IMG/VR virus record: IMGVR_UViG_3300046169_000081 | Location: 2,406 to 66,405 of that record | Reading direction: 5' to 3' (one strand) | Source of the DNA: a virus | Length of the DNA: 64,000 nucleotides | In this document: positions 24,298 through 62,098 of the stretch, in pieces | Layout of the letters: the number at the start of each line of letters is the position of its first letter | How positions within the stretch are numbered: the stretch's first letter is position 1 | Made by a program: the position numbers and the translations under genes | The notes under the pieces: model-generated | Databases searched by the model: none | Seen by the model: the letters and a program-made list of their open reading frames with translations, nothing else | What the model was told of the DNA's origin: nothing

Positions 24298-24552
24298 TTA
24301 TTTTTTACTTTTTATACCGCCACCATTTCTCATAGTTCTTGGGTCAAGGACATCTCCACCATTCATATAACCCATAAGACCTCCACCTTTGGCCATTTGA
24401 TTCATACGTGCTTTATTTGGAGTAATATCTCCATCACCAGCTCCATAAGTGCTACCGCCCATTTTTTTATATCCTTTAGCTTTCAAAGCATCAAATAGTG
24501 CTTGTGCACCTTTTCCTTTTGAACCGCCTTTCTTATACATTCTCTTTTTCAT
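24298..24552 (-). CDS. small basic protein with five x-x-G-G motifs
   Basis: YKKGG, KKMGG, MAKGG, YMNGG, MRNGG in 84 aa. Confidence 0.65.
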   Translation of the reverse strand: MKKRMYKKGGSKGKGAQALFDALKAKGYKKMGGSTYGAGDGDITPNKARMNQMAKGGGLMGYMNGGDVLDPRTMRNGGGIKSKK

Positions 24553-24557
24553 AATTT

Positions 24558-25019
24558 TTATTTTTTAATTGTTGTATACTTTTCAAATCCACGTGAGCCA
24601 AAATAAGCTACATAAATTGTAACTAATAAAGTCTTTAGTAATTCTACCCAACTTTCATCTATGTCAAATGCAATATCTAATGAATCAAGCACAATATATA
24701 AAGAAGTGATGATTGTTAAATACACTAGTGTCAGTGGTCTTGTATTTTTACTTAACCACGAATCTGATTTCATATCACTATCCCAACGTTTTGTTACTTC
24801 TTGCATTTCAATCATATCTAATTCAAGAAGTTTCATAGCTTTTTCTTTATCTTCAGGCGGTAATGTAGGATCTTTATCAATAAGATTTTTTACTACACCT
24901 AAAACACCTGAGTCAGGTAATAGATCTCCAACTGTGTCTACAATACCTGAACCAGCGCCTAACAAAAATTTCCCAACTTTTGTATCTTTAAATTTCTTTT
25001 TAGGTTTTTTATTACTCAT
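24558..25019 (-). CDS. holin of the 3TM (GTA-type) family
   Basis: RWDSDMKSDSWLSKNTRP followed by two TM segments and YFGSRGFEK. Confidence 0.8.
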   Translation of the reverse strand: MSNKKPKKKFKDTKVGKFLLGAGSGIVDTVGDLLPDSGVLGVVKNLIDKDPTLPPEDKEKAMKLLELDMIEMQEVTKRWDSDMKSDSWLSKNTRPLTLVYLTIITSLYIVLDSLDIAFDIDESWVELLKTLLVTIYVAYFGSRGFEKYTTIKK

Positions 25020-25021
25020 TG

Positions 25022-26005
25022 TTAATATTGTTTAATTAATAGTTCTGTATTAAGTAATTGATCATCAGGTCCTACAGGAACACCAATCTGCATAACACGC
25101 AATTCAAAACCATTTGTAGTTACACTATTAATTTGAGCTAGGTAACCACTATTTTTAAAAACCTGAGCAATATTAATAGATGCAACATTAGAAATTGGGC
25201 TTGCAAATGTTGCCGTGTACTGCCCTACACCTTGATATGCCCAAGTTATAGTAATTCCGGCAGTATTAACTAATACTGTTTCTGCTGGAGCGTTAGTCCC
25301 TGTTTGTGTTAATAAAACTCTATACTCGGTATATGGTGCTACTATATCAATATTATCTGTGTTTTGTGATATTGCTACACTACCATTTGAAGAAGTTAAT
25401 GATCTAAATTGTAATTCAGGTCCAGCTTTCTGTGCAAATGTTCCTGCCCCTATACCTACATTTGATGCTGTGTTAACTTCACCTCCTCCAGCTGCTGATG
25501 TAATTGTAATTTCTCCGTTATTCTCTGATAAATTAATATTACTACCTGCAACTAAAGATTTAAAATTAAGTGTTTCACCAACTTTATCTGCCCAAACACC
25601 AATACCATTACCTAAGTTAGCAGCAGTATTTGGTTCCCCATCTGTATCAATTTCAATATAATTATCATCAGCTGATAAATTTAAAGTGAGGTTACTACTT
25701 AATGATTTTAGAGATCTAAGGTATACTGTGCATTTATTTGTAGTTGGATCTACATCTTGTTTTTGAAATATACCTACCGACCCTGTTTCTGGGCTAGCTG
25801 GTGCATTAGCAGTATCACAATTTTCTGAAGATGCAAGATCTTTTACTTTAATAAGCTTTACTGATTTATAAGGTATTGGAGATGCAACACCAGTCATATC
25901 CGGCTTTTCATTCCACATACCTAAAACAACAACATCATCTTTGTGAGCTGTTTCTGTAAATTTACCGCGTCTAATAAGACTTAATATGTCAGTTAAAATG
26001 TTCAT
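25022..26005 (-). CDS. fibre-like virion protein with three internal repeats
   Basis: Repeats GEPNTAANLG..GVWADK..LNFKSL / GEVNTASNVG..GTFAQK..LQFRSL / GIFQKQ..YLRSL. Confidence 0.65.
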   Translation of the reverse strand: MNILTDILSLIRRGKFTETAHKDDVVVLGMWNEKPDMTGVASPIPYKSVKLIKVKDLASSENCDTANAPASPETGSVGIFQKQDVDPTTNKCTVYLRSLKSLSSNLTLNLSADDNYIEIDTDGEPNTAANLGNGIGVWADKVGETLNFKSLVAGSNINLSENNGEITITSAAGGGEVNTASNVGIGAGTFAQKAGPELQFRSLTSSNGSVAISQNTDNIDIVAPYTEYRVLLTQTGTNAPAETVLVNTAGITITWAYQGVGQYTATFASPISNVASINIAQVFKNSGYLAQINSVTTNGFELRVMQIGVPVGPDDQLLNTELLIKQY

Positions 26006-26007
26006 GT

Positions 26008-26229
26008 CTATTTACCAGAATGAGTCCAACCACCCATTTTATATTCTTGCATTTTTTCTGAGCCGTCTTTATTTTTAACAACTCTTTCTGCTTTACCACC
26101 TTTACGCATTTTTTCAACAACTGAACCCAGCATCATATCATCTAATTCTCCACCGCTTCTCATTAGTAGTTTAGCTTGCTGTCTTGTTATTTTTTGTGGT
26201 TTTAAACCCGCTTGTTTCTTTTTACTCAT
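26008..26229 (-). CDS. small basic protein with three x-x-G-G motifs
   Basis: MRSGGEL, MRKGGKA, YKMGGWT. Confidence 0.6.
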   Translation of the reverse strand: MSKKKQAGLKPQKITRQQAKLLMRSGGELDDMMLGSVVEKMRKGGKAERVVKNKDGSEKMQEYKMGGWTHSGK

Positions 26230-26758: not shown

Positions 26759-26786
26759 CCTTTAAAAATTTAAAGTACTATAGTAA

Positions 26787-26875: not shown

Positions 26876-26905
26876 TATTTCTAATTATTTTAAAACACAT
26901 ATCCT

Positions 26906-27094: not shown

Positions 27095-27138
27095 TTCTTT
27101 TTTTATAGATATATTTTTCTTAAATTATATCACATGGC

Positions 27139-27170: not shown

Positions 27171-27190
27171 AATCCTTAATAACTATCCTT

Positions 27191-29810: not shown

Positions 29811-29811
29811 T

Positions 29812-30641: not shown

Positions 30642-33600
30642 TTACTTGATATAAAAATCATCAAGTTTTTCAAATGCACCCCACTTTTGAACTGTATATA
30701 TTAAAGGTATAACATCAGCCCAGTTTTTATAAACTTTGAGCTGCCCTTTTCTTGGTCTATTTTGATATACTACAGCAGAGTCATCTGCAAATTCTTGATC
30801 GGTTAGAGTCAGTGATTTAACACCTGTTAAAACGGATAGTTCTAAAGCCTGACCAAATTCCCCTAAAGTTCTTGTTGCTGCTATTGGTGTTTTAGCCATT
30901 TGATATGTTTGCTGTAGTCCACCTAAACCAGGTAGAGGAACAAATAGAATCATTTCACTATAAGTTCTGTCTGCTTGATAAGCAGCAAAGTTTTTAAGTT
31001 TCTTTTCTAATGGATCATCATCCGGGTCTGCACCTTTTAACATTAGTGATATTGCATATACAGCCATAACTATCATTGCTTCACCCAAAGTTCTATATAC
31101 ATTTTTAAGCATCATGTTTGCCTTCTCTTCACTATAGGTACCAGTTTCAGTCAAACCAAACTGTTTTTTAAATTCAGCACCAACTTCTTTTAAACCTAAA
31201 GTTTTTGATCCTCGCAAACCAACAACACCCATTTGAGTAAAGAAATTAATAAACTTCACAGCAGAAACATATCTACCTTCTAACCATCCTAAGTTTGAAT
31301 CATAATACATACCTTGGAATCTTGCTCTATATGCAGGCATTACCCATTTATGAAACTGAGCAATAAGTTTACCTAGAAAATTATTTTGGATAACCATCCT
31401 GTCTTCTCTAGCATAGTTACCATGTATTTGTTTATTTACTTCACGTATATTATTTCTTAGTCTTTTAAAGTAAGTTCTATCATAAGGGAATTCTTCTTTA
31501 GTTCTAAAGTCTATAACAGTATCAAAACCTTCTCTTAATTTACCTTCACCTGTAGATCTATCCCAATCAAATGCTTCATCTAATCCTATTGTCTCACCCG
31601 TTTTACTGTTTTTTATTAGAGTTGATTTAAGTATAGCCATTCCAATTTTGCTCTGAACCATATATTCAGCTCCTTGGTTAAATGAATAACCAATCTGAGT
31701 AAATCTTTCCCATACAGTTCCTTTCTCTGCAGAGCCTGTAACTTCTCGTAAATCTGAATCTGGATCCATCATTCTGAATTCATCCACTAACCATTCATAT
31801 TTACTAACAGGTTTTGTTACATCATAATCACTTTTCTTAAGCTGTAAAGTATTTAGTGTAGCAACTCTACCCGCTAAGTCTGCTAGTTCTCCGGCAACAT
31901 ATGAAGTTCTTCTTACTAAATTAGGTACAGCTTTAGTTATAAAATCTTTTTCTGCATCTGCATAAGCTCGTGGTGTAAAGTATAATCCACCTATACCTTC
32001 AATCCAGTTGTTCACTTGACCTAAAGTTGCGTTGTTGATATTACCAAATATGTTAAATGCAACGTAAGTTAGAGAAGAAAAATTAATTACTGCATTTGTA
32101 ACATTCTCTAAGGCGCCTTTTGTAACTTCTGAATTATCATAATAGACCATCTTCATAAACTGATGAGCTCTTCTTGCAGCATTACTTTGTAGGCCTTGAT
32201 AGTTTTTCTTACCTGTTTCTTTAGTAATGAAACCCTTAGTCTTATCATATACTTTTGATAGAAGAGTATTTGAATCAGGGGTTGTATAAGTTCTCATTTC
32301 AATAGCTTTGACCATTGCTTGCAATGTGCCTTCTACTTCACCCATTACTTCAAAGTTTTCAGCCATCCTGCCAAACTTTAAAAGACTGGTTGTCATATCT
32401 GTACTTACTTCACCTAGTGTAGGTTGTGATCTAAGTTTTACTGCTTGTGCCTCTAGCTTAGCTCTTTCTTTACTATATTGATTTACAGTTATAGCACCCG
32501 TAGTTCTTTTATTTTTTAATTCTTGTATTTGATTATATATATTTTCTAGTGCATCTTCTGCTCTAGCGTTACCGGTATAAAATACTGGAAGTGTGTCAAT
32601 TAAATTACCATCTTTATTAACCATGACCATTCTTTGCTCAGAAGTCTGAACAAAAAAGTTTTTTACACTTCTTAAAAAGTTTGGTACTAATCTAGCAAAG
32701 TATGATGGTTTTGCTTTTATTTCATCAGCAAAATTATTTCTAATAATAGGAACTTTACCAAGCATTTGACCTCTTGTTGCTCTAGGTAGTTTGTCAAGAA
32801 GCTCTTCATAGTTTTTAACAAACATTTCATAATAAGCTTTTCTTGCTTCACCTAATGCATCTTTAGGATTCATGATAGCCTCATACTTCTCACTTAGAAG
32901 GCTTTCTTGTTGACCCGTTTCTGTATTAAAAAATGAATCTTTAACTTCTACATATTCTGGTTTTACAGCATCATCAAACTTCATGTTTTCTTTAATGGCA
33001 CCGGTAGGTTCACCATTATTCCTATACATTTTAGTATATGTTAACTCTTGATAATACTTTGCTCTATAAGCATTATATGCTGTTATATCCACCCCTTGTT
33101 TTCTAACCCATCTTCCACCTTCATTATTAGAATAAGGTTGAAAGTATTCAAAATTAGCTCTAGCAGTTTTAAATTCTTGTGTATACTGATGATATTTTCC
33201 TGATGTTAATTGACCATCCTCATATCTTTCAGCAGCCATAAATTCTCTAAATGCTTGTTTTTTTCTATAAAGATCTTTATTAAATTCTATCTCTTCCGCT
33301 TTAGCATTTTCTAATGAATAAATAGGATAATACTCATATGGTTTTCCATTCTCATCATATAGTTGACCACGTATTTTTTGTTTTTCATTATTATATTTTT
33401 GACCTATACGTTGTACATATAAACCAGAAAAACTTCCATCATCTTCATATTCCAACATGAAATCATAAAGTCTATTTACATCTGTTTCTGGTGAAAGTCT
33501 TAATAAAGTTTGACCAGCCGTTAATAATTCTTTTTCTCTTTTTTCAATTCTATCTAAAAACTCTTGTCTCTGAAACTTTACTATCTTGTCCATAGTAGCA

Positions 33601-36410
33601 AGTATAGCATCTTTACTTGTTGACAAGTCTCTTGCATACAAATCAGAGTTGGCAATATCAGGAGCAAGATCTCTAACCATTGATCTAAGATCTGCTAAAG
33701 TAAATTCCATACCACCATGTGATTGTATAACTACCTCATCATCCTTTTTAGTTCCTTGAAATGCATAGTCTTTTATAACTTTTTCAACATAGTCTAAAAT
33801 TGCATCATTAATAAGGCCTTGACCTTTTCCAGAACCTGAAACAACTTTAGTACCTAGAAGTTTTCTTAATTCTATTTCAATACTACCTACTAAAGATCTT
33901 TGTGTTGCATTTAGTTCTTTATTTTCAGTTACTGCATATAGACCCTCAAAAGTTTCTAGAAATCTTTCAAAGTTTAATACATAGTATATATACTTAGGAT
34001 CTGATAAATTCTGTGGATCATTAATATATGCAGAAAAAGATTTCATTTGCCTTAGCGCATCTTGAAGTAATCTTGTATATACAGCAGATCTAGCAACAGG
34101 TCCTTCAGCTCTTGCAACACTAATCATTCCAATCGTACTTGCAATTTGTTCTCTAGCTTCTTCACCTTGTCTATCCATAAAGATATTATTCTGAGCTAGG
34201 TCAAAAGCTTTTTGTTTTTCTATTAATGCAACTTCATAAGCTTCTAATGCACCAGATACCGTACTCAAAGCGGGATATTCTGCAGGATCTATTTCTTCTG
34301 CAATGCCTTCCAACTCATCTATTTGAGATTCGGTTTTATATATTTGATCTTCTGCATCTTTAATTACTTGTTCTTCAATCTCTTTCTGCTTAGCTAAGTT
34401 ATATGCATCTGGTATAAGCATATCTACTTTATCAAGATTTTGAGTAGTAGCATGATTAGCATGACCATTAAACTTTAATTTATTACCTTTATAACTTGTA
34501 TGTAAACTAACAAGTGCATCTTCTCCATAAGCTATTTCGTATCCCATGTTTTCAACTAAACGTCTTATGATATTTAGTTCAAGAGAATCCTGAACACTTT
34601 GAGCCAAAGAAGATTCTCCAGATACTTGACTATACAAACTATTTTTATCTAATTCAACTTTAACTGTATAGTATGGACTAGTTTTTTCATAAGCAGCTTT
34701 AGCAATACCCTCAATACTTTGCAACCATTTCTTAGGGTCTGTACTGATGATGTTATCTTTATGCATTTGTATTTGAGCAACTTTTACTTTACCAGTTCTG
34801 GTTATAAAAACAAGATCTGCTTTAGCCGCAATCTGAGTATCTTTATCATGAAATACAACATTAGTTAGAAGCACGTCCCCTCTATCTCTTATTGTTTCAA
34901 TTTGATCTACTATATTATTAAATGTTTGTTCTGCAAGCGTCTCATCAATATTAGTTATTTGATCTTTTATTTCAGCAAATGTTCTTGCACCTGCAATAGC
35001 ATCAAGCATAGTATTAACATCTTCTTTAATTCCTATAGCCGCTTGATCTTGTTTAATACCAACTGCTTCTTTAGCAGATATATAAGGTGTTCTAGATGAT
35101 GGGTCATCTGATAAATTATAAAATTTACCATCTTGTTTATTTAAGATAACAAGATCTTCAGAGTTATATTCTAATTGTGCTGTACCAGATAAAGTATCCG
35201 ATAAGGTTTTAGTTTGATTTACATTATGGAATAATCTATCAATCATTCTTTTTTGTAAATCATTACCTTGAGCTTTTGCTTTATTAACAATATTTTTCTT
35301 ACCGGGAGATAGATTATATTTTACCTGACCATTCTTAGGTATTGTATAATCAAATCTAATTCCTTCTGTATTTAATAACTTTGCTATGTCAGTTAGTTTT
35401 GCATTTGGTGAAATATTACCAACTGTAATTACACCCGTCATAGCTTCTTGAAGATTTACTATAATATTTTTAAACCACTCTAATAAGTCTGTAATTAATT
35501 TTTGAAATCTTGTAGTGGGTTGTTTCTCATACTCATTATTAAAATGTCTAGATAATGCTTGAGTTACAACTTCAATATCTCTATCTTCCGCACTAAATCT
35601 TCTTTTATCATTATATGCATCCTCAATTTCTTGTGTCAACTCAGGAAAGTTTCTTTTTGCTTCTGCAAGTAAACCTTCAAATAAAGCAATGTTATCAACT
35701 TTGATGGCATCAACAAATGGGTGGAGTATTTCTTCTATGGCTGTTTCATCTGTTACTCTACCTTTTATAAGTACAGCATAACCCTGGTAATAAAAAGAAT
35801 TGATTTTACTAAATGGTACTTTGCTCTTAGCATAATAGTTAATGCTATTATAAATATCTTCAGCTTGTTTTACTGACATTAATCTTACATCAATATCAGG
35901 AAACATTTTCATTAAATGCATTACAACTTTTCTAGCTCTAGGTGTATCCCAAGATCTAGATGCTTCAAGCATATCTTTATTACTAAATAAACTAGAGTCA
36001 ATACTAACAGCAAATGTTTTAGGTGTTTTTCTTAAGGATACAGATTCACTAGATATATTATTAATACTTAAGTATTCATATAACCTTTCAATATTAGCCT
36101 TCACTAAATCAGGATCAGTCGCAAGATTTTCTTGGTTTGTATTAACAATATAGTATTCATTATTATAATTGTGTATAATACCTTCCCTTCTTAAATTATT
36201 TAGAAGTGCTTGTGCAAAATCTCTCTGTTTTAAATTAAAAGCAATTTTATTTTTTTTAAGTAGATCTGCTGCTTGCTCGGTAGTTGGTATTGCATCTGTT
36301 TTAGTAAATGATTGATACTGATCAATAACGTTGCCTGTTACTAAATCAGTACCATAAACATTCTTTAATGCTTTATATTCAACTGTATTTCTATTGTGAC
36401 ATTTACTCAT
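30642..36410 (-). CDS. giant virion cargo/ejection protein (1922 aa) with degenerate zincin and nuclease-like domains
   Basis: Follows the vRNAP gene; IEEILHPFV (HExxH variant), IAAKADLVFI...KVAQIQ (PD-(D/E)xK remnant), helical C-terminal region typical of phage ejection proteins. Confidence 0.7.
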   Translation of the reverse strand: MSKCHNRNTVEYKALKNVYGTDLVTGNVIDQYQSFTKTDAIPTTEQAADLLKKNKIAFNLKQRDFAQALLNNLRREGIIHNYNNEYYIVNTNQENLATDPDLVKANIERLYEYLSINNISSESVSLRKTPKTFAVSIDSSLFSNKDMLEASRSWDTPRARKVVMHLMKMFPDIDVRLMSVKQAEDIYNSINYYAKSKVPFSKINSFYYQGYAVLIKGRVTDETAIEEILHPFVDAIKVDNIALFEGLLAEAKRNFPELTQEIEDAYNDKRRFSAEDRDIEVVTQALSRHFNNEYEKQPTTRFQKLITDLLEWFKNIIVNLQEAMTGVITVGNISPNAKLTDIAKLLNTEGIRFDYTIPKNGQVKYNLSPGKKNIVNKAKAQGNDLQKRMIDRLFHNVNQTKTLSDTLSGTAQLEYNSEDLVILNKQDGKFYNLSDDPSSRTPYISAKEAVGIKQDQAAIGIKEDVNTMLDAIAGARTFAEIKDQITNIDETLAEQTFNNIVDQIETIRDRGDVLLTNVVFHDKDTQIAAKADLVFITRTGKVKVAQIQMHKDNIISTDPKKWLQSIEGIAKAAYEKTSPYYTVKVELDKNSLYSQVSGESSLAQSVQDSLELNIIRRLVENMGYEIAYGEDALVSLHTSYKGNKLKFNGHANHATTQNLDKVDMLIPDAYNLAKQKEIEEQVIKDAEDQIYKTESQIDELEGIAEEIDPAEYPALSTVSGALEAYEVALIEKQKAFDLAQNNIFMDRQGEEAREQIASTIGMISVARAEGPVARSAVYTRLLQDALRQMKSFSAYINDPQNLSDPKYIYYVLNFERFLETFEGLYAVTENKELNATQRSLVGSIEIELRKLLGTKVVSGSGKGQGLINDAILDYVEKVIKDYAFQGTKKDDEVVIQSHGGMEFTLADLRSMVRDLAPDIANSDLYARDLSTSKDAILATMDKIVKFQRQEFLDRIEKREKELLTAGQTLLRLSPETDVNRLYDFMLEYEDDGSFSGLYVQRIGQKYNNEKQKIRGQLYDENGKPYEYYPIYSLENAKAEEIEFNKDLYRKKQAFREFMAAERYEDGQLTSGKYHQYTQEFKTARANFEYFQPYSNNEGGRWVRKQGVDITAYNAYRAKYYQELTYTKMYRNNGEPTGAIKENMKFDDAVKPEYVEVKDSFFNTETGQQESLLSEKYEAIMNPKDALGEARKAYYEMFVKNYEELLDKLPRATRGQMLGKVPIIRNNFADEIKAKPSYFARLVPNFLRSVKNFFVQTSEQRMVMVNKDGNLIDTLPVFYTGNARAEDALENIYNQIQELKNKRTTGAITVNQYSKERAKLEAQAVKLRSQPTLGEVSTDMTTSLLKFGRMAENFEVMGEVEGTLQAMVKAIEMRTYTTPDSNTLLSKVYDKTKGFITKETGKKNYQGLQSNAARRAHQFMKMVYYDNSEVTKGALENVTNAVINFSSLTYVAFNIFGNINNATLGQVNNWIEGIGGLYFTPRAYADAEKDFITKAVPNLVRRTSYVAGELADLAGRVATLNTLQLKKSDYDVTKPVSKYEWLVDEFRMMDPDSDLREVTGSAEKGTVWERFTQIGYSFNQGAEYMVQSKIGMAILKSTLIKNSKTGETIGLDEAFDWDRSTGEGKLREGFDTVIDFRTKEEFPYDRTYFKRLRNNIREVNKQIHGNYAREDRMVIQNNFLGKLIAQFHKWVMPAYRARFQGMYYDSNLGWLEGRYVSAVKFINFFTQMGVVGLRGSKTLGLKEVGAEFKKQFGLTETGTYSEEKANMMLKNVYRTLGEAMIVMAVYAISLMLKGADPDDDPLEKKLKNFAAYQADRTYSEMILFVPLPGLGGLQQTYQMAKTPIAATRTLGEFGQALELSVLTGVKSLTLTDQEFADDSAVVYQNRPRKGQLKVYKNWADVIPLIYTVQKWGAFEKLDDFYIK

Positions 36411-48400: not shown

Positions 48401-50710
48401 TAAATTTAAATACTCTGGACTACCAGCAGTTAAATTCTCGTAGTTAAAAGTTTTATCAAATACTTTAGGTAATTTATTAGCAAAAGTCTCACCATATTCA
48501 TCTATCAGATTAATTTGTTTCTGAATACGTTTTCTTACCTTCTCAGGTTTTCCAAACTCTTTTGGATTAAAAGCTTCTGCAAGATCTTTATCTGACATTT
48601 TACTAAACTCAAGATAACTTTCTCTTGCAAATTTTATAGAGCCTCTTTCATATGCTGAATACAAATTAAAAAATTGTGCAGCAAACTGTGCATTATCAAA
48701 ATCATATTTATCATTATCTGCAAACGCAATGCTTTGCTCAGAAAAATTTTGTTTTTGTAATATAGCTTGAAATTGAGCTGGTGAAAGCACAGATTCTAAA
48801 TCTTGTTTCATCATTTCACCACGCTCATTAATTTGTTTTACAATATCATCTAATACTTGTTCTCTTCTTTGACTATATTCTTTAGCATAGTTTGATTGTG
48901 TACCATCACCAAATTTTGTGTTTGCTTTTGCATATGCACTTCTACCAATAGCAGGTAAACCCTGAAACAAAACTTGCTGATAAGGACCAGCTAAACCACC
49001 CATTAAAAATCCTGAAAGAAAAACACTCATGCCTTCTTTTGATGCAAGATTAGAAGTTGATTGACCAACATAACCGGCAAGAGTTGACGGGCCACCGCTT
49101 AAAGGATCTCTCAATAATGAGCTGTAATATCCAACTGTTGCAGCAGAAATTGCTTCTTGAGATACTTCTTGTACACCTTCTGCTAAATTAGCAGCACCAT
49201 ATCTTAACATCTGAGTACCCATAACTTTAGCAGCTCCTTTGTAACCGGCTCTATTAAAGGCTAATTTAAGTTCTTGTGGTATTCTCTTTATTAAATATTT
49301 ACTTCCCTTTACTGCTGTAAATGCATCTTTACGTAGGATTCTATTGGAGTTAGTAACTTGCCTTCTCCAACCACCAAATGCATTTTTTAAAACAATTCTG
49401 TTAGAGGCATATATAACAGCAAAGTTTGCCATCTGAGCTTTAAAAGATGCCTCAGCAGCTTTAACCATTATATCCTTGGTCTGTTGTTCTGTTACACCCC
49501 CACCTTGATTTTTATAGTTTGCTTCATTAAAACCATTATTTAAAACTTGGTTATAAACCATACCTGCTTCCATTTTAGATTCAGATAATGATGCATTAAC
49601 CATTCTAAAATCTCTATAGAATGCACCAAATAAATTTGTTGTCTTAGCAAGATTTATTGTATTCTGTGCAGTGGTTTTTGCAGTCTTCCAATTTTTAAGT
49701 GCATATAAAGTTTCTGGTGCTATTGCTCTAAATACAGTATTCATACCTTTACCAAGCTGAGCAGCATTAAAAAGATCTCTTGCTCTTTCTACTTGAGATA
49801 TTTGTTTTACAAAGTCATATGAAGCTTTTGCACCTCTTGTAAAAGATGTACCTTTCATTGTAAAATCAAAAGCCCTTTTTATTCTAGGTATAAATCTTCC
49901 TTGTGCAGCAACAAATGCAGCAAGACTACCACCACCAGTTGGTACAGCTGTAAGAGCAGCTCCGGCTGCTAATATTGCTTCTTCAACGGCAATAGATGCC
50001 ACAATACCTGCTGTATAACCAAAGTTTAAACCAAGGTTGCCAAACCAACCACCAAAACTACCAGATGTACTACCACCAATTCTCATAGCATCTTCCATCT
50101 CTTGTGCAGACTCAAGATCTGGATCTTCCCAATAACTATCACCATCAAAAATATCTGCTAATGATCTATAACTTGATACAAAACCAGTCCCTCCAAGCTT
50201 TAAAAATTGTTCAAAACCTCTTTGAAATCCATCCCAACCAGTCATATTTTTATTGAATACAGCATCCATGTTAGCATAAGGAGCAAAACCTATGTCTGCA
50301 AAAGCATTACTCTCGTACTGTCTATCAAAGTTTATTTGTCTTACATTGCTCCAAATAGGATTTGGAAGTGTTCCTTCATCAGGTGTAAGAGGTTCTTTAA
50401 GACTTTGCTCTAATTGTTCTGCTATAGTTAATTTTTTTTGTGGCTGTGTGCTGGTAGATAAACCAGGAGACAACTTATCCATAAACATATTACCAATAGC
50501 ATTAGGTCCAACCTTATCCATTTCTGTTCTGTACATATCAATTTGCTGCATGTACTTATCATCAATAGGATTTTCTAAAGGAGGCAGGATATCATCTATA
50601 GATTGATAAGGAACAGATGTATCAATAGGATTCATATCAACTGAATCTTGTACAATTCTCTGTTTCAAATCAAAATCTGGACTTGGTAAATTGTTTGTTA
50701 ATTCTGACAT
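36420..50710 (-). CDS. giant virion-packaged RNA polymerase polyprotein (~4,762 aa when two +1 indels near 40371 and 40246 are removed)
   Basis: Catalytic GADFDIDKL (39843-39857) and VRIPSQ as in crAss-like/phi14:2 gp66 RNAP; DAQMY and KKF...IKMS in the upstream ORF; HEAFH zincin (44306-44320); ORFs 40361-50710, 40216-40404 and 36420-40064 join into one frame. Confidence 0.85.
36717..37256 (-). repeat. 27-bp imperfect direct repeats (24/27) flanking a 171-codon domain in the vRNAP gene
   Basis: ttcaaccccactagtttgttgtgttgg (36717-36743) vs tttaacctcactaggttgttgtgttgg (37230-37256); period 513 nt. Confidence 0.8.
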
Positions 50711-54116: not shown

Positions 54117-56936
54117 TTACATACCCATCTTACCCGTATAGAATGGATAAGCAAATGGTTTTATTTCTTTTCCTTTTCTTCCTGTTAATCCATCTGTTCT
54201 TACAGAAGGTGCATTACTAGTTAACCCAGAAGCATTGGGATTACTACCGCTTTCAAAATCATTATAATTTTGACTTTTCTTTTTGCGTGAACCAGTCTGA
54301 CCTGTTAACAAATAATCTACACGGTTTTCTATTTCATCTTCAGGCATATCTGGATATTGTTCTATTAACCTATCTCTTGTTTGAATATACGTATCCATTC
54401 TTTTTTGTTGATCAGTTCTATCATCCGTATCTACTTCAAATGGTTTAGCATACTTTTGAGATTGAACACCACCTGCAGATGGGTCAGCTTTATAGTAATC
54501 TTTAAGCTGATTCATATTAAATGTATTAGCTCTGTTAGTTATAGCTTGATTATATAACTCATTTGTTTTTTGCTTATCCCAATTTTCAAAATCAATATAT
54601 CTTTGTAAGGCTGTAACCGTACTGTCATACTCATCTTTATACGCTTGTGCATTTGCAACACCAGTTCTTAAATTAAGCTGTGCTTGTGGCAATGCAACAC
54701 TATTCATAATTTTTATATTATTAGTGTTTACTGATCCTACATCTTTAGCAAGTTGACCAACTGCTTTACCAAATAAGTTTGAACCTGCAACTTTACCTTT
54801 ACCAAAAGCTCTAAGATTTTGAGCCATGGTATTTAATGCTGCATTAGTCATATTTGCTCTACCAGTCCAATCATCTAATACGTAATCAATTTCTTCATTA
54901 GGTACTTTAGGAATGTTTGGTAAAAACAATGGATTCTCTAAAGAAGCTTGAGTTGCTAAATTATTAAGATCTTGCCACCACCATTCTGGTTTCTCTTGCT
55001 CTGGCATCTCTAAAGTATTAGGATCTCTTGGTTGTAATGTATCTTTAACTTCTTCTTCTAAAATTTCTTGCTCCTTTGTTCTAATATAACTTCTAGCTTT
55101 ATTAAATGTATCTAAACCTAGTTTACCATCTATACCACTACCCGGTCTATCACCAGGAAATAAAACTCTTGGTTCCGTTTCATTCTTTTGAGCAAACTCA
55201 TTTTCAACTTCTTGCATTGCATTTTGCATAGCAGTCCACTGTTTCTTATAAGCTTTAGCTTGTGCATCAACAGGATTACTACCGCTCCATTTTCCTTGTG
55301 GCATATTATAATCAAAACCAGGAACTTTAGATGCAGCATCTCCCCATCTTAGCATAAAATCTTTTTCTGCTATATCAGTACTTAAGTCTGCTCCAAATGA
55401 GTTTGAAGCCTCACCCATAGAAGATTGAATTTTTGGTCTGTTTTGCCCAGAGTAAATACCTTTTCTAATTCTAGCATTATCGGGAAAACCTTCATAAACT
55501 TCTATTAACTCATTTGTTATTTCGTCTGTAACAGGAATACTACCCTGTCCTTGAACATCAATTGATTGTTGTTTATATTCTGTAAAATCTTCAAACAAAC
55601 TTGGGCCTGCTGGCTCAATTAATTTGTAATTTGTTTTACCGCTTACTTTATCCCTGGATTCAACTAATTGATATCCTTGCATAATTTTTTCTGTAAACAA
55701 ATCTCTTTTAGGATGTCCTATAGGAAGAGGATTACTTTCTTCTGCTTGAGCTCTTGTAATTTTACCATCAGTATCTTCAGTAGTTGTTTGTTGAGTTTCT
55801 TCTTGTCTACTTTGTTTTTTATATTCTGCAGGAAAAAATGCCCCTAACTCTGAATCATATACGTAAGCTCCTCTATCTTCTTTTTTAACATCTGGTAAAC
55901 CAATTCTATCATAATACTCATTATATCCTTCACCATCTTGAGGAGAATCATAACCTACTGTTTGCACTGTTACTCCTCCATTATCACTATCCTTTTGTTC
56001 TGTACCATCTTGAGCCTTTGCTAGTTCGCCTCCTTTTTTAAGTGTAGCTGTAAGTTCTTGATCTGCAATTGCTACATCAGCTTCATTGGGTGCTCCTTGT
56101 GAATCTGGTAATGCTAATTCTCTAGATGAATCTTGAACTGCACCTGCATTAGGATTTTCAATGTTTTGCATCATAGCTTGTAAACGCAGAATTTGATCTT
56201 GTTGTTCTGGTGGCAATGATGCAATAAAATTAAGCTCAGCTTGTTGTCTTGATTGTTCTTCAATTTGTGCGGTAAAATCAATTGGATCTATACCCTGTTC
56301 TTGCAAATATGGATATGCAGCTAAAGGCACACCGTCTTCAAAACCTTTCTTAAGTTCTTGTCCAAAAGCAAGCTTTGATAAACTTCTCATATTTTTACTT
56401 AACATCATATCTGCACTTCTTGTAGATATTTCATCAGCATACTGATCATTTATTTGTGCTAAGTATTCATTTAGTTTAAATTTTTTAGATACCTGAGCTG
56501 GAGTTTTTTTCTTTCTGGATTCTATACCAAACTCTGCTAACTCAGATCTATCCATCTTCATTGCATTAGTATCAGAAAAAATAAATGACTGTTCTGGTAA
56601 ATACATAGGAACTCCACCTTGAGAGTGTCTTGGTCCTGTTATATCATACAAACCAAACTGACCATTATTATTTAAATCAGTTAAAACAGTTTCTCCACCT
56701 TCAGCTTCTATATTGGCATCTTCTCTTGGCACACTAGATAAACTATATCTTACAGATGTATCTTTATCATCATTAAAATTTGTATCTCCATAGAATTCTT
56801 CTGGAGTTGTAACCAAACCATACTCTGCTTGATCACCAGTAACAAGGCCACCATCTCTTTTGATAGTTTTCTTTTTTACTTTACCATCAACTAATTCAAA
56901 ACCTTTTGGTAATTTATTTATCTTAACTTTTGCCAT
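54117..56936 (-). CDS. virion cargo protein (939 aa) with crAss-type N-terminal domain
   Basis: ANIEAEGGETV...GPRHSQGGVP...FIFSD motif; GG linkers KRDGG and LKKGGELAKAQDG. Confidence 0.7.
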   Translation of the reverse strand: MAKVKINKLPKGFELVDGKVKKKTIKRDGGLVTGDQAEYGLVTTPEEFYGDTNFNDDKDTSVRYSLSSVPREDANIEAEGGETVLTDLNNNGQFGLYDITGPRHSQGGVPMYLPEQSFIFSDTNAMKMDRSELAEFGIESRKKKTPAQVSKKFKLNEYLAQINDQYADEISTRSADMMLSKNMRSLSKLAFGQELKKGFEDGVPLAAYPYLQEQGIDPIDFTAQIEEQSRQQAELNFIASLPPEQQDQILRLQAMMQNIENPNAGAVQDSSRELALPDSQGAPNEADVAIADQELTATLKKGGELAKAQDGTEQKDSDNGGVTVQTVGYDSPQDGEGYNEYYDRIGLPDVKKEDRGAYVYDSELGAFFPAEYKKQSRQEETQQTTTEDTDGKITRAQAEESNPLPIGHPKRDLFTEKIMQGYQLVESRDKVSGKTNYKLIEPAGPSLFEDFTEYKQQSIDVQGQGSIPVTDEITNELIEVYEGFPDNARIRKGIYSGQNRPKIQSSMGEASNSFGADLSTDIAEKDFMLRWGDAASKVPGFDYNMPQGKWSGSNPVDAQAKAYKKQWTAMQNAMQEVENEFAQKNETEPRVLFPGDRPGSGIDGKLGLDTFNKARSYIRTKEQEILEEEVKDTLQPRDPNTLEMPEQEKPEWWWQDLNNLATQASLENPLFLPNIPKVPNEEIDYVLDDWTGRANMTNAALNTMAQNLRAFGKGKVAGSNLFGKAVGQLAKDVGSVNTNNIKIMNSVALPQAQLNLRTGVANAQAYKDEYDSTVTALQRYIDFENWDKQKTNELYNQAITNRANTFNMNQLKDYYKADPSAGGVQSQKYAKPFEVDTDDRTDQQKRMDTYIQTRDRLIEQYPDMPEDEIENRVDYLLTGQTGSRKKKSQNYNDFESGSNPNASGLTSNAPSVRTDGLTGRKGKEIKPFAYPFYTGKMGM

Positions 56937-56938: not shown

Positions 56939-58789
56939 TTATAATATTTCTATGTCAGCTCCAGCTGCAATTAGTTGTGCTATCATATCTTGTGATAATT
57001 CTAATACTTCACCACCTTGTTGCATTTCATCTTTATGCAGGTAACCCATATCAGCCATTCTTTCATGATCAGCTTTTACATTAGCTTTATAACCTTTATT
57101 TGTTTTAGGATCAAACATCATATGAGGTTTAAACTCTCCTCCTTCTTTTGCAGTTCCAGAAAAACTATAAGGACTGCCTGCAAAGTTCATGTAGTATCCT
57201 GCTACTCTATCTGCTTCACTACCCAATTGTCCAGATAAAGCATCATAAGTACCTCTAGTTCTTGGGCCTGACATTTTTGTTGCATACTTATAATCAGCGC
57301 CAGATCTTTCTTCAAGTTGATCTTGAGCTTCTAAATAAGTTTTTTGATCTGCAATTCTATTATATAAACCAGCAAAATCAGATGCTGCTCCTAATATAGA
57401 AGCACCAGCTCTTACATATGGATTATCACCCAATCTATCTATTGTACCAGATATTGGGTTGTTAACATTAATTTCTGGTTGAAAGTTAACATCATTATAC
57501 ATGTCTTCTAGATTAGGTCTATCAACAGTTCCATAAGCGGGTACACCTGTACCCTCTCCACCATCTATATCCATAACATCCGGTATGCCATCACCATCTG
57601 CATCAGGATTAAAACCCGGTGTTTCAAAACCCATTTGTGCACTATAAACAGATCCACCAAACATTTTATTATATATACTGTCAAACATACTTCTTGCAGT
57701 ATCCATATTTGTAATACTTGGATTCTTTTGTAACCATTGTTCAAACGTTGGTTTTGCTACTGTCAAGTCTGATACTTGTTTATCAGCTTTTGCTTTATTT
57801 TCTTGAGTTTGATATTGTAATTCTTGTGCTTCTGCAGTTGCCCAATCTTTAAATTTATTGATATTTTCTTCTGATCTTACATCACTAAAATCAAGATCTA
57901 CATCATAATATTTATATTTGTCAGCTTTATACTGATCTACTTTATCTCCAAAGTTGCTAAACTCACCTTTAACATCTCCAATTACAGTTCCCACAGTATT
58001 AACGATATCAAATAATGGATTTACTGCTGGAGGTGGCATCATTGGTAATACTGCATATTGTGGATCTGGAAAATAATATTGATCCTGTCTTTGCAAATTT
58101 TTATAAAATGCATCATTTGCTATTTCACTTTCATCTGGAATAAAGACACCGTTTATTATTTCACCTTTTGGTTGTCCACCACTTTGAAAATTGCTAATAG
58201 CTCTTTTTACATAACCCATAGCATTATCTACATCACCTCCAAATTCTTTATTCCAACCAGCTGCATTTTTTGCAAAGTTTGCCATTTTAACAACATCAGT
58301 TGTATATCTATCTTTATTTGACATTACTTTATTTGCCGCGTCAGAAACAGTCATGCCTCTTTTCTTTGCCCATGCTGTAAACTTACCTTTGTTCTCAGGT
58401 TTAATTTCAATACCAGACTTAGCCATACCCATCATTTGATTTTCTTGAGCGGCTTCTTGTTCTTCTTGTTTAATTATATCTTCATTTCTTGAAAGTAACT
58501 CTGGATTTGAATTTACTTCTTCTGGAGTAGATGGTTGAGTGCTTCTTTCTATTTGTTCAAATAAAGACATAATATCTTCTTCAGCCATACCAACCATCAT
58601 AAGCGCTTGAGCAATAACTTGTTGATCTACTTGATTTTGAACAAGTGCTGCTACAACCTCTTGCGGGTTTTGACCTTCTTGTACAGATGAAGCAATAGCT
58701 TGAGATATCTCCATAACTTGTGGATCAACTTGCTGTTGAGCCTCACCTCCCGTTTGTTTTAAACTTATTTTGTTTAGTTCCACACTCAT
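56939..58789 (-). CDS. virion cargo protein (616 aa), GG-punctuated modules
   Basis: IEIKPENKGKFTAWA...MANFAKNAAGW module, DADGDGIPDVMDID Ca-binding-like loop, repeated xxGG linkers. Confidence 0.65.
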   Translation of the reverse strand: MSVELNKISLKQTGGEAQQQVDPQVMEISQAIASSVQEGQNPQEVVAALVQNQVDQQVIAQALMMVGMAEEDIMSLFEQIERSTQPSTPEEVNSNPELLSRNEDIIKQEEQEAAQENQMMGMAKSGIEIKPENKGKFTAWAKKRGMTVSDAANKVMSNKDRYTTDVVKMANFAKNAAGWNKEFGGDVDNAMGYVKRAISNFQSGGQPKGEIINGVFIPDESEIANDAFYKNLQRQDQYYFPDPQYAVLPMMPPPAVNPLFDIVNTVGTVIGDVKGEFSNFGDKVDQYKADKYKYYDVDLDFSDVRSEENINKFKDWATAEAQELQYQTQENKAKADKQVSDLTVAKPTFEQWLQKNPSITNMDTARSMFDSIYNKMFGGSVYSAQMGFETPGFNPDADGDGIPDVMDIDGGEGTGVPAYGTVDRPNLEDMYNDVNFQPEINVNNPISGTIDRLGDNPYVRAGASILGAASDFAGLYNRIADQKTYLEAQDQLEERSGADYKYATKMSGPRTRGTYDALSGQLGSEADRVAGYYMNFAGSPYSFSGTAKEGGEFKPHMMFDPKTNKGYKANVKADHERMADMGYLHKDEMQQGGEVLELSQDMIAQLIAAGADIEIL

Positions 58790-58802: not shown

Positions 58803-58816
58803 TAATATACAAATAA
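58803..58816 (-). promoter_or_regulatory. putative phage promoter motif TTATTTGTATATTA
   Basis: Intergenic, 13 nt upstream of ORF 58789; same core as the other copies. Confidence 0.5.
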
Positions 58817-58843
58817 TTAAGGACAATCACTAATTTTTAAGGT

Positions 58844-61800
58844 TTAAGAACTCTTCATTACATAAGTAAGAATATAATTTGGAACTGACATTCCAAGTCC
58901 TTTTGCATCTGTATAATGTACTCTGTTTAATTTATCATAAATACTTTTACTTGTATCATCTGTTGCACCACCCATAACATACTTTTTATATATATCATAA
59001 AGGGTTAATTCACCACCACCTTCAAAAGAACTATATCCACCCTCAATACCTTCTTTTTCTGCTGCATTAAAACTTTCTAAAAAAGAATTTCTATCTCCTT
59101 GGCTTTCAACATTTTTATGTCCTTTTAACCAAAGATCTTCTAGTTTCATTTTGCCTTCTGCATAATCAGCTAACTTTGCATCTGACTCAATTAAGTTTGC
59201 AAAGAACAAAGTATATTGATCTTGAGCATTTAATTCATCTGCTGACTTAGCATTTAAAATATCTGGGTTAGGCGTAAAACCTTTTGATTTAGCAATGTTT
59301 GTATATCTCTTTTGTGCAGTTTTTAATGATGGTGGTTCAAATTGAAATAAACCTCTACCCGGACCGCCAAGATACTGTTTAGCTTTAGGATCCATTCTTG
59401 CCCAAGGACCTGATTCATGAAAAGCTATTGTATCAGCAGCTTTACCCCATAACTCTTTAGTACCTCCCCTAGTATCAACAACATAATCTAATATATTATT
59501 AAAGTTTAATGTCTTAGCTTTTTGAAATTCAGGTTTTGGTTTAGCAAGATTTTCTATAAACTCTTGTTTTGTAAATCCATCTTTAGGTGGTATTACAACG
59601 CTATCATTAACAGGAGGATTCATTACAGCTTCTGGATTTTGTTGTCTATAATATTCCCAACTTTCTTTATCAAAAGGTGCTTGTCCGCCTTCTTGTAATT
59701 TATCTAATGGTACTTTTCTATAAGCAAAGAAAGGATCTTTTTTATAAAAATTAAAATTTTCAACATTTCTCATTTTTGGTTTCATGATGCCAATATCCCC
59801 AACCCATTTATTCATTGGTGTTGGATCTACCATCATATTTTGCATATAAGCCGGTTGAAAGTATGAATCCATACCTTGATATTTGATTGGATCTGATGGA
59901 TCAAACTCAATCAAATAATCAGCACTACCTGATCTACCTCTAGTATTACGTTTACCATCTAAACCAGATTTAGACTTTTTGTTATAATCAAAAAATGTTT
60001 CGCCCTTTTTAAAAAAAGGCCCTGGATATCTTTTACTAAGTTGGAACATTCCCGGTTGCAAATTTTGAAGTTCAGCAAGTTTTTCTGCAAAAACTCGCGG
60101 ACTTATTTCTTCACCCATTTCTCTTACAGTACGAGTTGCTTGTGCATCTCTAATTGCTGGTTCTCCAACTTGTCTTAACCATTTTTCATTTTCTTTATTA
60201 AACTGTAAAAACTCCGGAAGCTTTGAGTTTATATTATTATATGCCCAAGGGTTATATTTATATAAATCATTTTGAATAAACTCATCTATATAATTAGCAC
60301 CCTTTTTAATAGCAGGTTTTAATTTTTTTAAAAAAGCACCTAGCTGAGCTTTATCCAAATCACTAATATCTCCACCATACTTTTTATAAAAATCAGATAA
60401 ATTTTTTAATACTTCATCAGCATTACCTATAAAAGCAGAGGCACCTGGAATCTTGCCGGTTTCTCTTATTTGTTTTACAAGTGGTGGTGGTAAAACATAC
60501 TCACTAGAGATTGGCATATTACCCATACCACCACTCATGTTTAATGCTCGTTCAGTTGCTGTTCCTGTATATAAATTAAAGTTTTTAGCATCTGCTGGAT
60601 CAAAATACGCTGTTATCAATCTTCTAGGTGCTGCTGGCTCAAGAACTTCAATAAAATCAGCTTGACTCATAGCATCTTTTGTTTTATCAATATAAAATTT
60701 ACTTAACTTATCATTAAACCAATTTCCATCTTCATAATTACTAAATGATGTATTACTTACATTAGCATCCTCAACTCTGTTTAATCTTACAGCATCTTTT
60801 TTTGGTATTTTTTTTATTGACCCATCTCCGGTAACTACTTCAACTAACTCATCAAGTTTATCTAACGGTGCATTCTTAGCTACATTTTTTCCTTTTGATA
60901 ACCATGCAGGTACAATTGGTATTGCGCCTAATGCATCAAAACCAGCATCAAGATATTCTCCCTCCTCTGCATTACGTTTTGCAGATGCAGCATATTTAGC
61001 CCAAGCAAAAGGATTAATTGCATCAATCACTCCATCAAATGCATTTCTATTTTCTGCATTAATTGGTATGCTATCTGGTAAATCTTGATTTCTAGCTGAA
61101 TAGCCAAAAGCAGTCATAGGACTTGCTAAATAGTCTAATGCTTTCTCATACCATGCTGGTTCTTCATATTGAGATATGGTTGGTTGTTCTTTACCGCTTT
61201 GAGCAATTGGTACTCCACCATTTTTATATTTTGGATTAATTTGTATATCTCTAGATCTACTATCACCAAACATTCTCATAAGTTCCCTCATTCTGTTTTC
61301 GTCTCCTTCTACTTTCATTTCTTTTGACATCCAAGAAGGATTGGGGTTTGCCATGTTTGCATCTGGTGTTATAATAGCCTCATATGATGTAGGTATTCTT
61401 GGTACATTTATCTGACTAGTTTCTATTGAATTAGAAACAGTAAGAGGTGTTAATTTAGCAGAATTTAGTTTAGTAGGTGTTGGTATTTTATTTCTTACCT
61501 CCTTCATAAACCAATCTACAGGATAAGTATAGTTGTTTTTTCCAAAACTAAAAGAAACATACTCATCATCAACATCTTTTATTTCAAGGTCTTTAAAATC
61601 CTTGTCTTGATAAGATCTTTCAAATTTTAGTTTTTCTTTTATTTTATCTACAGTGATATCTGGTACTTTTACTTTTCCTCCATCTTGAGCAATAGGTAAA
61701 GCTTCTCCTCCACATTTATGACAAGTTGTTAGATCATTACCTCCATCTGCAGCTTTCCATTTCCAACCGCAACTATTACATTTCATAGTTTTAGTTAAAA

Positions 61801-62098
61801 GACCACCTCCTCTTTTAGCCATTGGAACCTCAACAACATAATCAGCATCTCCGTAGTTTATATTTTTTTCTCCGGGTTTCATATCTTTAACAATACCATT
61901 GTTTCCATATCCTCTAACTGGAAAGTCCACACCTTCCATAGTAATATCTGCTGATGGTATAATATTAAAAGGATTATTTACATCAGGACTATCTGACTTA
62001 TATCCATCTATAGAAAACATGCCAGTAATGTATGTAAACTGTTCGTTTGGTCCACCGGGTAATCCTATTGATTCTATATGTTTAAAGTTCTTTTTCAT
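58844..62098 (-). CDS. modular virion cargo protein (1084 aa): Zn ribbon, two ART-like domains, lysozyme/transglycosylase-like domain
   Basis: CNSC...CHKC; RLNRVE...GNWFND...SEYVLP; LRQVG...GPFFKKG; IAFHESG...GRGLFQFE; modules separated by GG linkers. Confidence 0.6.
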   Translation of the reverse strand: MKKNFKHIESIGLPGGPNEQFTYITGMFSIDGYKSDSPDVNNPFNIIPSADITMEGVDFPVRGYGNNGIVKDMKPGEKNINYGDADYVVEVPMAKRGGGLLTKTMKCNSCGWKWKAADGGNDLTTCHKCGGEALPIAQDGGKVKVPDITVDKIKEKLKFERSYQDKDFKDLEIKDVDDEYVSFSFGKNNYTYPVDWFMKEVRNKIPTPTKLNSAKLTPLTVSNSIETSQINVPRIPTSYEAIITPDANMANPNPSWMSKEMKVEGDENRMRELMRMFGDSRSRDIQINPKYKNGGVPIAQSGKEQPTISQYEEPAWYEKALDYLASPMTAFGYSARNQDLPDSIPINAENRNAFDGVIDAINPFAWAKYAASAKRNAEEGEYLDAGFDALGAIPIVPAWLSKGKNVAKNAPLDKLDELVEVVTGDGSIKKIPKKDAVRLNRVEDANVSNTSFSNYEDGNWFNDKLSKFYIDKTKDAMSQADFIEVLEPAAPRRLITAYFDPADAKNFNLYTGTATERALNMSGGMGNMPISSEYVLPPPLVKQIRETGKIPGASAFIGNADEVLKNLSDFYKKYGGDISDLDKAQLGAFLKKLKPAIKKGANYIDEFIQNDLYKYNPWAYNNINSKLPEFLQFNKENEKWLRQVGEPAIRDAQATRTVREMGEEISPRVFAEKLAELQNLQPGMFQLSKRYPGPFFKKGETFFDYNKKSKSGLDGKRNTRGRSGSADYLIEFDPSDPIKYQGMDSYFQPAYMQNMMVDPTPMNKWVGDIGIMKPKMRNVENFNFYKKDPFFAYRKVPLDKLQEGGQAPFDKESWEYYRQQNPEAVMNPPVNDSVVIPPKDGFTKQEFIENLAKPKPEFQKAKTLNFNNILDYVVDTRGGTKELWGKAADTIAFHESGPWARMDPKAKQYLGGPGRGLFQFEPPSLKTAQKRYTNIAKSKGFTPNPDILNAKSADELNAQDQYTLFFANLIESDAKLADYAEGKMKLEDLWLKGHKNVESQGDRNSFLESFNAAEKEGIEGGYSSFEGGGELTLYDIYKKYVMGGATDDTSKSIYDKLNRVHYTDAKGLGMSVPNYILTYVMKSS

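Follow-up and report, generated by a model that had tools for sequence, protein, structure and literature searches.

What does a short peptide ending in two glycines do when it recurs in five late proteins of one virus? The question is raised by a stretch of 64,000 nucleotides (the window) from the virus record IMGVR_UViG_3300046169_000081, which comprises bases 2406-66405 of a 66,405-base contig open at both ends. The peptide, [K/Q/R]-x-Gly-Gly (written [KQR]xGG), is found in open reading frames (ORFs) of 84, 73, 616, 939 and 1084 amino acids (aa). The first-pass annotation of the window, whose quoted peptides are all present in the ORFs named, proposed that it is a signal for head targeting or for a maturation protease. 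In our reading, to which we give a probability of about 0.5, the motif is an uncut joint or docking tag, in which the Gly-Gly stays whole and provides a helix stop and a flexible seam. On this view it would mark seams and protein ends in a cassette architecture that is confined to the cargo (ejection) proteins other than the polymerases in a marine crAss-like clade, and to two families of free-standing microproteins, rich in Met, Gly and Lys and assembled from these cassettes. A cassette would be a short helix or mini-domain closing with a hydrophobic residue (M or Y), a basic residue or Gln, any residue and Gly-Gly, and the following cassette would frequently open with Glu.

The enrichment of the motif, the specificity of its flanks, its restriction to the cargo and micro-ORF set and the conservation of its sites are all direct observations. 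When each of 49 ORFs was compared with 1000 composition-preserving shuffles, [KQR]xGG was in excess in the 84-aa (4 observed against 0.93 expected, p 0.005), 73-aa (3 against 0.38, p 0.002), 616-aa (4 against 0.69, p 0.003) and 1084-aa ORFs (7 against 1.07, p <0.001), and marginally so in a 3449-aa ORF (5 against 1.88, p 0.03). An 1111-aa ORF had 2 against 0.56 (p 0.10) and the 939-aa ORF was not enriched (2 against 1.03, p 0.28), so that four of the five late proteins named are enriched. The 30 ORFs of the plus strand held three [KQR]xGG in total, none significant. Eleven related viral loci were found, two of them from records rated 100% complete, and these two relatives, G001 (116,877 bases) and G002 (115,836 bases), were taken whole for comparison with the window phage (G000). 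The strict form [MFYL][KQR]xGG occurred on the late and early strands 15 and 0 times in G000, 11 and 0 times in G001 and 7 and 0 times in G002 (33 against 0 in all), and the anticipated difference between late and early proteins was thus borne out.

These counts bear on the simplest explanation, that the motif is a functionless by-product of a Gly/Lys-rich, low-complexity composition. The micro-ORFs are indeed very rich in Gly and Lys, and the 939-aa protein taken alone would fit such an origin. However, composition-preserving shuffles were exceeded in four ORFs, as the first-pass annotation had expected of a real signal, the flank biases persist given the Gly-Gly, and site positions are conserved across homologues of 40-60% identity. 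Furthermore, a Gly-rich late protein of 1202 aa (10% Gly) has a single [KQR]xGG against 0.98 expected. A compositional origin is therefore very improbable.

The flanks of the Gly-Gly are regular. Of the 35 Gly-Gly runs in the cargo trio (the 1084-, 616- and 939-aa proteins) and the micro-ORFs of G000, 18 have K, Q or R at position -2 (background 0.18, p 7e-6), 13 have M, Y, F or L at -3, and 9 have E at +1. This bias recurs in the same set of G001 and G002 and was not seen in the other late proteins (47 runs) or the early proteins (20 runs), and neither the capsid, portal and fibres nor the cargo of the polymerase type carry the [KQR]xGG-type motif. The three genomes contain nine copies of a companion peptide, [LIVMA][PAK]-x-AQ-x-G, every one in the cargo trio and mostly just behind a seam. 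Motif sites do not differ from other sites in their Gly-Gly codon pairs, of which GGTGGT is the commonest, and this places the signal and the selection in the protein and not in the DNA. A Shine-Dalgarno-like GGAGG signal at the DNA level, a candidate prompted by 'GGAGGA...ATG' in one relative, was rejected on the same codon pairs. In two loci (L005 and L007) an N-terminal tag is encoded behind a GTG start.

Judged by its genes, the phage belongs to the Crassvirales, as a marine-type member of which only part is represented. CheckV estimates the contig at 58% completeness, and the head genes fall outside it. Early and replication genes occupy the plus strand at 1-20 kb of the window, and late genes the minus strand at 20-64 kb. 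Matches in the polymerase block, i.e., of the 1922-, 1214- and 3449-aa ORFs, place the phage among the crAss-like phages, and in 73 phage records the 1922-aa ORF also has matches to genes of crAss-like phages annotated as 'putative RNA-polymerase subunit'. Here and in the relatives, the late strand runs in the order 2170-aa protein, 1084, 616, 939, 1111, polyprotein and 1922, where crAss001 has gp44, gp45, gp46 and gp47. The piece of the 2170-aa protein left at the contig end shares 79% identity with the last part of a 2169-aa ORF in locus L001. It gave an empty BLASTP result at E 1e-3 against crAss001 gp44 and phi14:2 g071, and the protein is a putative muzzle by gene position. A collection of cultured phages held no match to the 8-kb cargo DNA or to the 939-aa protein.

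The 616-aa protein connects the motif with a solved virion. BLASTP aligned it with crAss001 gp45 (E 1e-9, 33% identity over 135 aa), and a hidden Markov model (HMM) of its family had gp45 as the sole significant match among the 196 ORFs of crAss001 and phi14:2 (E 5e-5, Z=1000). By these alignments, the 616-aa protein is a homologue of the crAss001 cargo protein C1 (gp45), and with a C1 homologue in the cargo block the first-pass view of the motif carriers as internal, loaded proteins is a fair one. At E <= 0.001 its family comprises 492 proteins in the database, none of them named, and 120 of the homologues, which are not independent of each other, contain 620 [KQR]xGG against 113.6 expected. 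The Gly-Gly pairs of the window protein lie at aa 14, 184, 204, 378, 410, 550 and 592. Conservation across 32 aligned homologues picks out four Gly-Gly columns, namely the N-terminal tag K-x-S-x-K-Q-x-G-G, the seams W-K-K-E-E-G-G-E and x-G-G-x-L-P-K-A-Q, and the C-terminal seam K/Q-x-G-G-E ahead of a conserved 24-residue tail. In homologues of the large cargo proteins the motif sites hold their position while the surroundings diverge. One Gly-Gly-bounded cassette found in relatives is missing in the window phage, and the aligned sequences indicate that cassettes are gained, lost and recombined at seams. In the AlphaFold 2 (AF2) model of the 616-aa protein, which has a mean predicted local distance difference test score (pLDDT) of 49.9, all seven pairs lie in coil between predicted helices or strands, and in this weak model GG204 and GG378 come straight after a predicted helix.

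Two cassettes of this protein have features of their own. Just past a seam (window 57032-57133, aa 553-586) lies a His-rich cassette, P-H-x-M-[FY] ... H ... G-Y-x-H, which is possibly metal-binding, and some relatives have a second copy of it after the W-K-K-E-E-G-G-E seam. An Asp-rich stretch, D-x-D-G-D-G-I-P-D, ending in Gly-Gly (window 57557-57604, aa 396-411) is conserved in several homologues and presumably resembles a calcium-binding repeat of the thrombospondin-type-3 or OmpA-like kind.

The alignment puts GG184 (KEFGGDV) on GG427 of gp45 and GG204 (FQSGGQ) on GG447. According to the available text of the crAss001 virion study, cryo-electron microscopy resolved gp45 residues 425-552 as a single compact domain that is bound to the portal (Bayfield et al. 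2023, PMC10172136). Both glycine pairs lie inside this intact domain, so two homologous seams are uncut in the solved virion, and the idea of Gly-Gly processing finds no support in these two of the peptides first quoted. The same text names gp45, gp46 and three polymerase proteins as the cargo identified by mass spectrometry, and in its available part no word begins with 'cleav' or 'protease' (PMC10172136).

A protease was sought in the three genomes in all six frames with seven peptidase families. The prohead-type families S78 of HK97 (PF04586) and S77 of T4 (PF03420) and ClpP/S14 (PF00574) were found in none of the three records at E <= 1, and neither were C5 adenain (PF00770), C48 Ulp1 (PF02902) and C57, the poxvirus I7 type (PF03290), of clan CE, the C63 type of African swine fever virus (ASFV) not being among the families searched. 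C39 (PF03412) was likewise found in none of the three, and the motif is also internal and C-terminal, unlike the double-glycine leaders of C39 systems, which are N-terminal only. In G001 the portal (917 aa), the major capsid protein (538 aa) and an IHF-like protein are encoded in the order typical of crassviruses. Scans of the G001 head module (20 ORFs against PHROGs, 10 against Pfam) turned up no protease, and a 428-aa ORF between its portal and capsid genes had no Pfam or PHROG match. No maturation protease of the families searched, as had been suspected, was thus found in any of the three records, two of which are complete.

The search bears on the possibility that the motif is a cleavage code, cut after the Gly-Gly either at maturation or, after injection, by a co-injected zincin-like metallopeptidase of the giant virion polyprotein. 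Cassettes would then be released, and the microproteins would become sets of small basic peptides. In favour of cutting, the motif is regular, occurs in several proteins and lies at module borders and near N-termini, where the cleavage sites of phage head proteases sit. An HExxH motif stands in a conserved context in the 3449-aa polyprotein part and in its counterparts in G001 and G002, and a cut after injection would be invisible in virion structures. According to the literature available in part, the HExxH region of crassvirus and N4 polymerase proteins is a zincin-like metallopeptidase suggested to process polyproteins, the polyproteins of crAss-like phages are described as 'likely cleaved', and the processing of polyvalent proteins is probably the work of zincin-like peptidases. 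By this published fold assignment, the domain of the window phage is predicted to be zincin-like; Pfam had no family at the HExxH region. On the other hand, no record has any of the seven maturation or Gly-Gly-specific families searched, the two homologous joints are whole in crAss001 virions, the virion paper in its available text is silent on cleavage, and the N4 polymerase with such a domain is reported, in the literature seen in part, to be packaged unprocessed. Moreover, the polyprotein that bears the HExxH is itself not punctuated by the motif. We consider cleavage somewhat unlikely, its most plausible form being a cut made after injection by the co-packaged HExxH domain.

The polyprotein deserves a description of its own. 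The 3449-aa part matches crAss001 gp47 (BLASTP E 2e-7) over a region spanning the HExxH, and in G001 the 3449- and 1214-aa parts are fused as a single 4701-aa ORF. The motif as a border code of this polyprotein was rejected, the G001 ORF having 3 sites against 2.71 expected (p 0.51) and the sites being poorly conserved. Most Gly-Gly sites of the 3449-aa part are not of the motif type. Ten of its 19 Gly-Gly positions fall in Gly/Ala-rich hydrophobic stretches (window 48971-50203, aa 170-580) that resemble the Gly-rich predicted membrane segment of gp45 (aa 120-160) and are not seam-type Gly-Gly. In the window the gene is broken at 40064-40404 on the minus strand: the 3449-aa frame ends, a 62-aa ORF in another frame carries the homology on and then the 1214-aa frame begins, which makes two frame changes against none in the G001 ORF. 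This could be an assembly error, a pseudogene or programmed frameshifting.

The restriction of the motif to C1-type cargo and micro-ORFs would also fit a pure address tag, a short linear motif that would load and order the cargo on being read by a fixed receptor of the procapsid or tail, be it the portal, the ring proteins or the scaffold, with the microproteins as multivalent tag carriers or competitors. All five proteins are tagged within their first 30 residues (aa 9-30), and the gp45 segment that lines the crAss001 tail barrel (residues 214-245; PMC10172136, available text) begins four residues past GG209-210. In the 939-aa protein, residues 26-121 are nearly invariant and did not fold alone in a poor AF2 model (pLDDT below 50; mean 52.2 for the first 330 residues), as a segment folded by a partner might be. 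However, the receptor is only hypothetical, and the flavour of the motif varies by clade ([FY]GG in crAss001, N-x-x-x-hydrophobic-GG in phi14:2) even though portals are highly conserved. Up to seven repeats per chain also exceed what an address would need. A pure address tag is in our opinion unlikely.

The two other large cargo-block proteins were examined in the same way. Among 939-aa homologues, GG29, GG80 and GG107 are conserved in all seven, and the seam at 302 is Gly-Gly in four and Gly-Ser or Gly-Thr in three. In the 1084-aa protein an LP-x-AQ-x-G companion follows two of the [KQR]xGG sites, and among eight homologues the sites at aa 15, 523 and 575 are conserved in seven and that at aa 1027 in all. 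Between two of its seams lies a CxxC...CxxC cassette, a possible zinc ribbon (window 61706-61780, aa 107-131), present in three of the eight homologues. Neither the 939- nor the 1084-aa protein matched gp45 significantly by BLASTP or HMM, and a likeness of the 939-aa N-terminal domain to the portal-bound domain of gp45, seen by eye, was given up on the same searches. A complex prediction of the G001 portal (1-860) with the 939-aa N-terminus (1-135), run without controls, scored 0.00 and is evidence neither way. Pfam had no family for any of the five motif proteins, PHROGs gave only rows of unknown function or a generic 'virion structural protein', PDB sequence searches with the 616-, 939- and 1084-aa proteins gave chance-level rows (E 0.36-0.93), and the ESM Atlas gave unnamed small clusters only.

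The microproteins had been described as little beyond the motif and basic spacers, which proved too simple: from their alignments both are real conserved families with conserved cores. The DNA-condensing role first proposed for them is hypothetical. The 84-aa ORF has 29 homologous clusters (59-104 aa) with a conserved 35-residue core, retained Gly-Gly positions and Lys tails. The 73-aa ORF had 22 matches among 1.84 billion protein representatives, of which 19 are small relatives (50-106 aa) and three are long repetitive proteins, apparently matched by chance. Its family has three conserved Gly-Gly positions, and the second Gly of the first two is sometimes S, N, A or V, a replaceability that also speaks against cleavage. 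The segments between its seams run from an acidic start to a basic end, as would be seen in helices capped at both ends. The 84-aa ORF is similar to residues 365-412 of the 616-aa protein, so the motif proteins are not fully unrelated as had been thought, and in locus L152 a single micro-ORF unites cassettes known from both microprotein families and from an 83-aa ORF of G001. Such likenesses indicate that the microproteins are mosaics with cassettes in common with the large cargo proteins. Pfam at E <= 10 returned only sub-threshold rows of domains of unknown function (DUF) for seven micro-ORFs.

Further small ORFs were noticed alongside them. A basic family of 63-68 aa (locus L020 9435-9623 in G001; 58207-58410 in G002) has a G-Q-W-S-A-R-K-A-Q core and carries Gly-Gly or Gly-Gly-Gly at two places. 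A suspected likeness of the 63-aa ORF of G001 to DUF5872 was dropped, Pfam at E <= 10 returning nothing for it. Both microproteins contain about 9.5% Met, which is also the residue seen most often at -3 of the seams, and a 113-aa relative is extremely Met-rich, with alternating Lys-Met at its end. A speculative variant, which we also regard as unlikely, is that hydrophobic-[K/Q/R]-x-Gly-Gly-Glu is a recognition code common to the large cargo proteins and the microproteins, read either after injection by the co-injected zincin-like peptidase, which would cut strings of pre-effectors into many small Met-rich basic peptides within the host, or by tail-barrel rings that would order the cargo.

Under the reading of the motif as an uncut joint or docking tag, the Gly-Gly joints would allow the chain to fold back for storage in the cargo zone while some of its parts dock to the portal, like C1 of crAss001, and during infection the chain would be threaded through the tail partly unfolded. 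The flanks of the motif may contribute docking contacts. Compact storage and partly unfolded extrusion have been proposed for C1 in the available text of the virion paper (PMC10172136). We infer that the joints are uncut in this phage as well; the seams would act as hinges, and the microproteins would be packaged with the large proteins.

Several points weigh against this reading. For a plain hinge, a doubled Gly with flanks so regular would be unnecessary, as would copies of the peptide at the ends of proteins, and this regularity suggests that the motif is read. A zincin-like HExxH domain is predicted in the same particle. Only two of about 20 motif sites map on the solved structure, which is that of a distant gut phage with the other flavour, [FY]GG, and the AF2 models are of low confidence. 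The 1084-aa homologues are without enrichment in G001 (3 against 1.20) and G002 (2 against 1.06), and an early 417-aa ORF of G001 has 2 [KQR]xGG against 0.16 expected. Membership in the virion is putative for the motif proteins of the marine clade, and most so for the microproteins. The micro-ORFs are also accessory, being present at about a fifth of the holin loci examined: a Gly-Gly micro-ORF lies immediately past the holin in 17 of 79 loci with downstream room, and the signatures of the 73-aa family (on the strand of the holin) and of the 84-aa family occur in 17 and 13 of 80 loci, respectively.

The features of the window are listed in Table 1. Near the micro-ORFs, an Ig-domain protein (the 1202-aa protein, 20432-24040, minus strand) and a 327-aa fibre-like protein (25022-26005, minus strand) have similar starts, in which some 15 residues lead into a Lys/Arg run, and G001 and G002 have four or five paralogues with that start, which is probably an attachment helix for interchangeable fibres. 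Genes for the small and large subunits of ribonucleotide reductase (27191-29810, plus strand) lie on the strand opposite to the two late-strand blocks that they split, and G001 and G002 share this arrangement. In G002, rated 100% complete, the portal gene consists of several short ORFs (locus L015 about 10093-10647, i.e., G002 50093-50647, and neighbours), a 185-aa N-terminal piece being followed by pieces of 138, 148 and 220 aa, where G001 has its single portal ORF; introns or inteins, frameshifts or assembly errors are possible causes.

Table 1. Positions of the cargo, polymerase and micro-ORF features in the window.
Feature	Position	Strand	Remarks
84-aa microprotein	24298..24552	-	Gly 22.6%, Lys 17.9%, Met 9.5%; directly after holin gene
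Holin	24558..25019	-	Between both micro-ORFs; phrog_3427 holin, E 4e-18
73-aa microprotein	26008..26229	-	Lys 19.2%, Met 9.6%; upstream of fibre-like and holin genes
1922-aa RNA-polymerase-associated cargo protein	30642..36410	-	No [KQR]xGG; crAss001 gp49 E 2e-24
1214-aa part of polyprotein	36420..40064	-	RNA-polymerase DFDID motif at aa 69; crAss001 gp50 E 9e-16; phi14:2 g066 E 3e-13
3449-aa front part of giant virion polyprotein	40361..50710	-	HExxH at aa 2131 (nt 44306-44320)
939-aa cargo-block protein	54117..56936	-	[KQR]xGG at aa 26-31 and 299-304, conserved sites
616-aa cargo protein	56939..58789	-	C1 (gp45) homologue; 7 Gly-Gly pairs
Residues 110-242 of 616-aa protein	58064..58462	-	Aligned with crAss001 gp45 357-485 (BLASTP); holds GG184 and GG204
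1084-aa cargo-block protein	58844..62098	-	16 overlapping Gly-Gly positions
C-terminal 633 aa of ~2170-aa protein	62098..63999	-	Cut by contig end; no [KQR]xGG; tail-muzzle position in crassviruses

Crassviruses are among the most abundant known phages, and what is at stake here is how several megadaltons of cargo are loaded, stored and ejected. A conserved junction peptide provides a handle on this, as it marks C1-type cargo exactly, sets cassette borders for the dissection of domains, and can be mutated or fused to a reporter in order to distinguish the models of loading, hinge and cleavage. In addition, judging from the microproteins, the cargo may extend to very small proteins, which gene callers and proteomics easily overlook.

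Gly-Gly sites after a hydrophobic residue are known from the adenovirus protease precursors pVII and pX/mu and from ASFV pS273R, where small basic core peptides are released. In the phage proteins the hydrophobic residue is one place further from the Gly-Gly than in the adenain site, and unlike in the adenovirus and ASFV systems the hosts are bacterial and C5, C48 and C57 were found in none of the three records. A short common peptide for loading and cleavage is likewise familiar from the capsid-targeting sequence of T4, its gp21-cleaved internal proteins and the inner-body proteins of phiKZ. Unlike in T4, no S77 (gp21-type) protease was found in the three records at E <= 1, and the motif also lies deep inside the proteins and in C-terminal cassettes. 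In the ejection proteins of T7, P22 and N4 we know of no common junction peptide. These podovirus proteins (T7 gp14-16, P22 gp7/16/20, N4 gp51/52) are stored in the head, extruded partly unfolded and form channels, according to the available text of the virion paper (PMC10172136), and the PDB sequence searches revealed no sequence similarity of the cargo trio to them (chance-level rows). Polyvalent proteins, for which the available text of Iyer et al. (2017, PMC5512222) proposes processing at module borders and describes no junction peptide, are similar in being injected or packaged multi-module proteins and in having HExxH fused to a virion RNA polymerase. They differ in that the modules here are tiny cassettes, not recognisable enzymes, and the motif proteins are without a peptidase domain of their own.

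Our literature searches yielded no publication describing the peptide and none combining Crassvirales, a cargo protein and Gly-Gly, and the available part of the crAss001 virion paper does not mention the motif (PMC10172136). The free-standing seam microproteins are undescribed for crAss001. Its C1 is like the 616-aa protein in its place in the gene block, with the muzzle position on one side and the polymerase proteins on the other. It is also rich in Gly-Gly: most of the 20 runs in gp45 follow an aromatic residue, N-x-x often precedes them, and the basic N-terminus leads to a Gly-Gly at residue 20. Unlike in the marine clade, [KQR] at -2 and Glu at +1 do not characterise gp45 (1 [KQR]xGG against 2.49 expected), and in the marine clade the functions of C1 are seemingly spread over the 1084-, 616- and 939-aa proteins. 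In phi14:2, g069 and g070, both detected in the virion by tandem mass spectrometry according to the record annotation, carry N-x-x-x-hydrophobic-Gly-Gly. Compared across these phages, the Gly-Gly seam looks like an old trait of C1-type cargo, and the K/Q/R-Glu flavour like its marine-clade variant.

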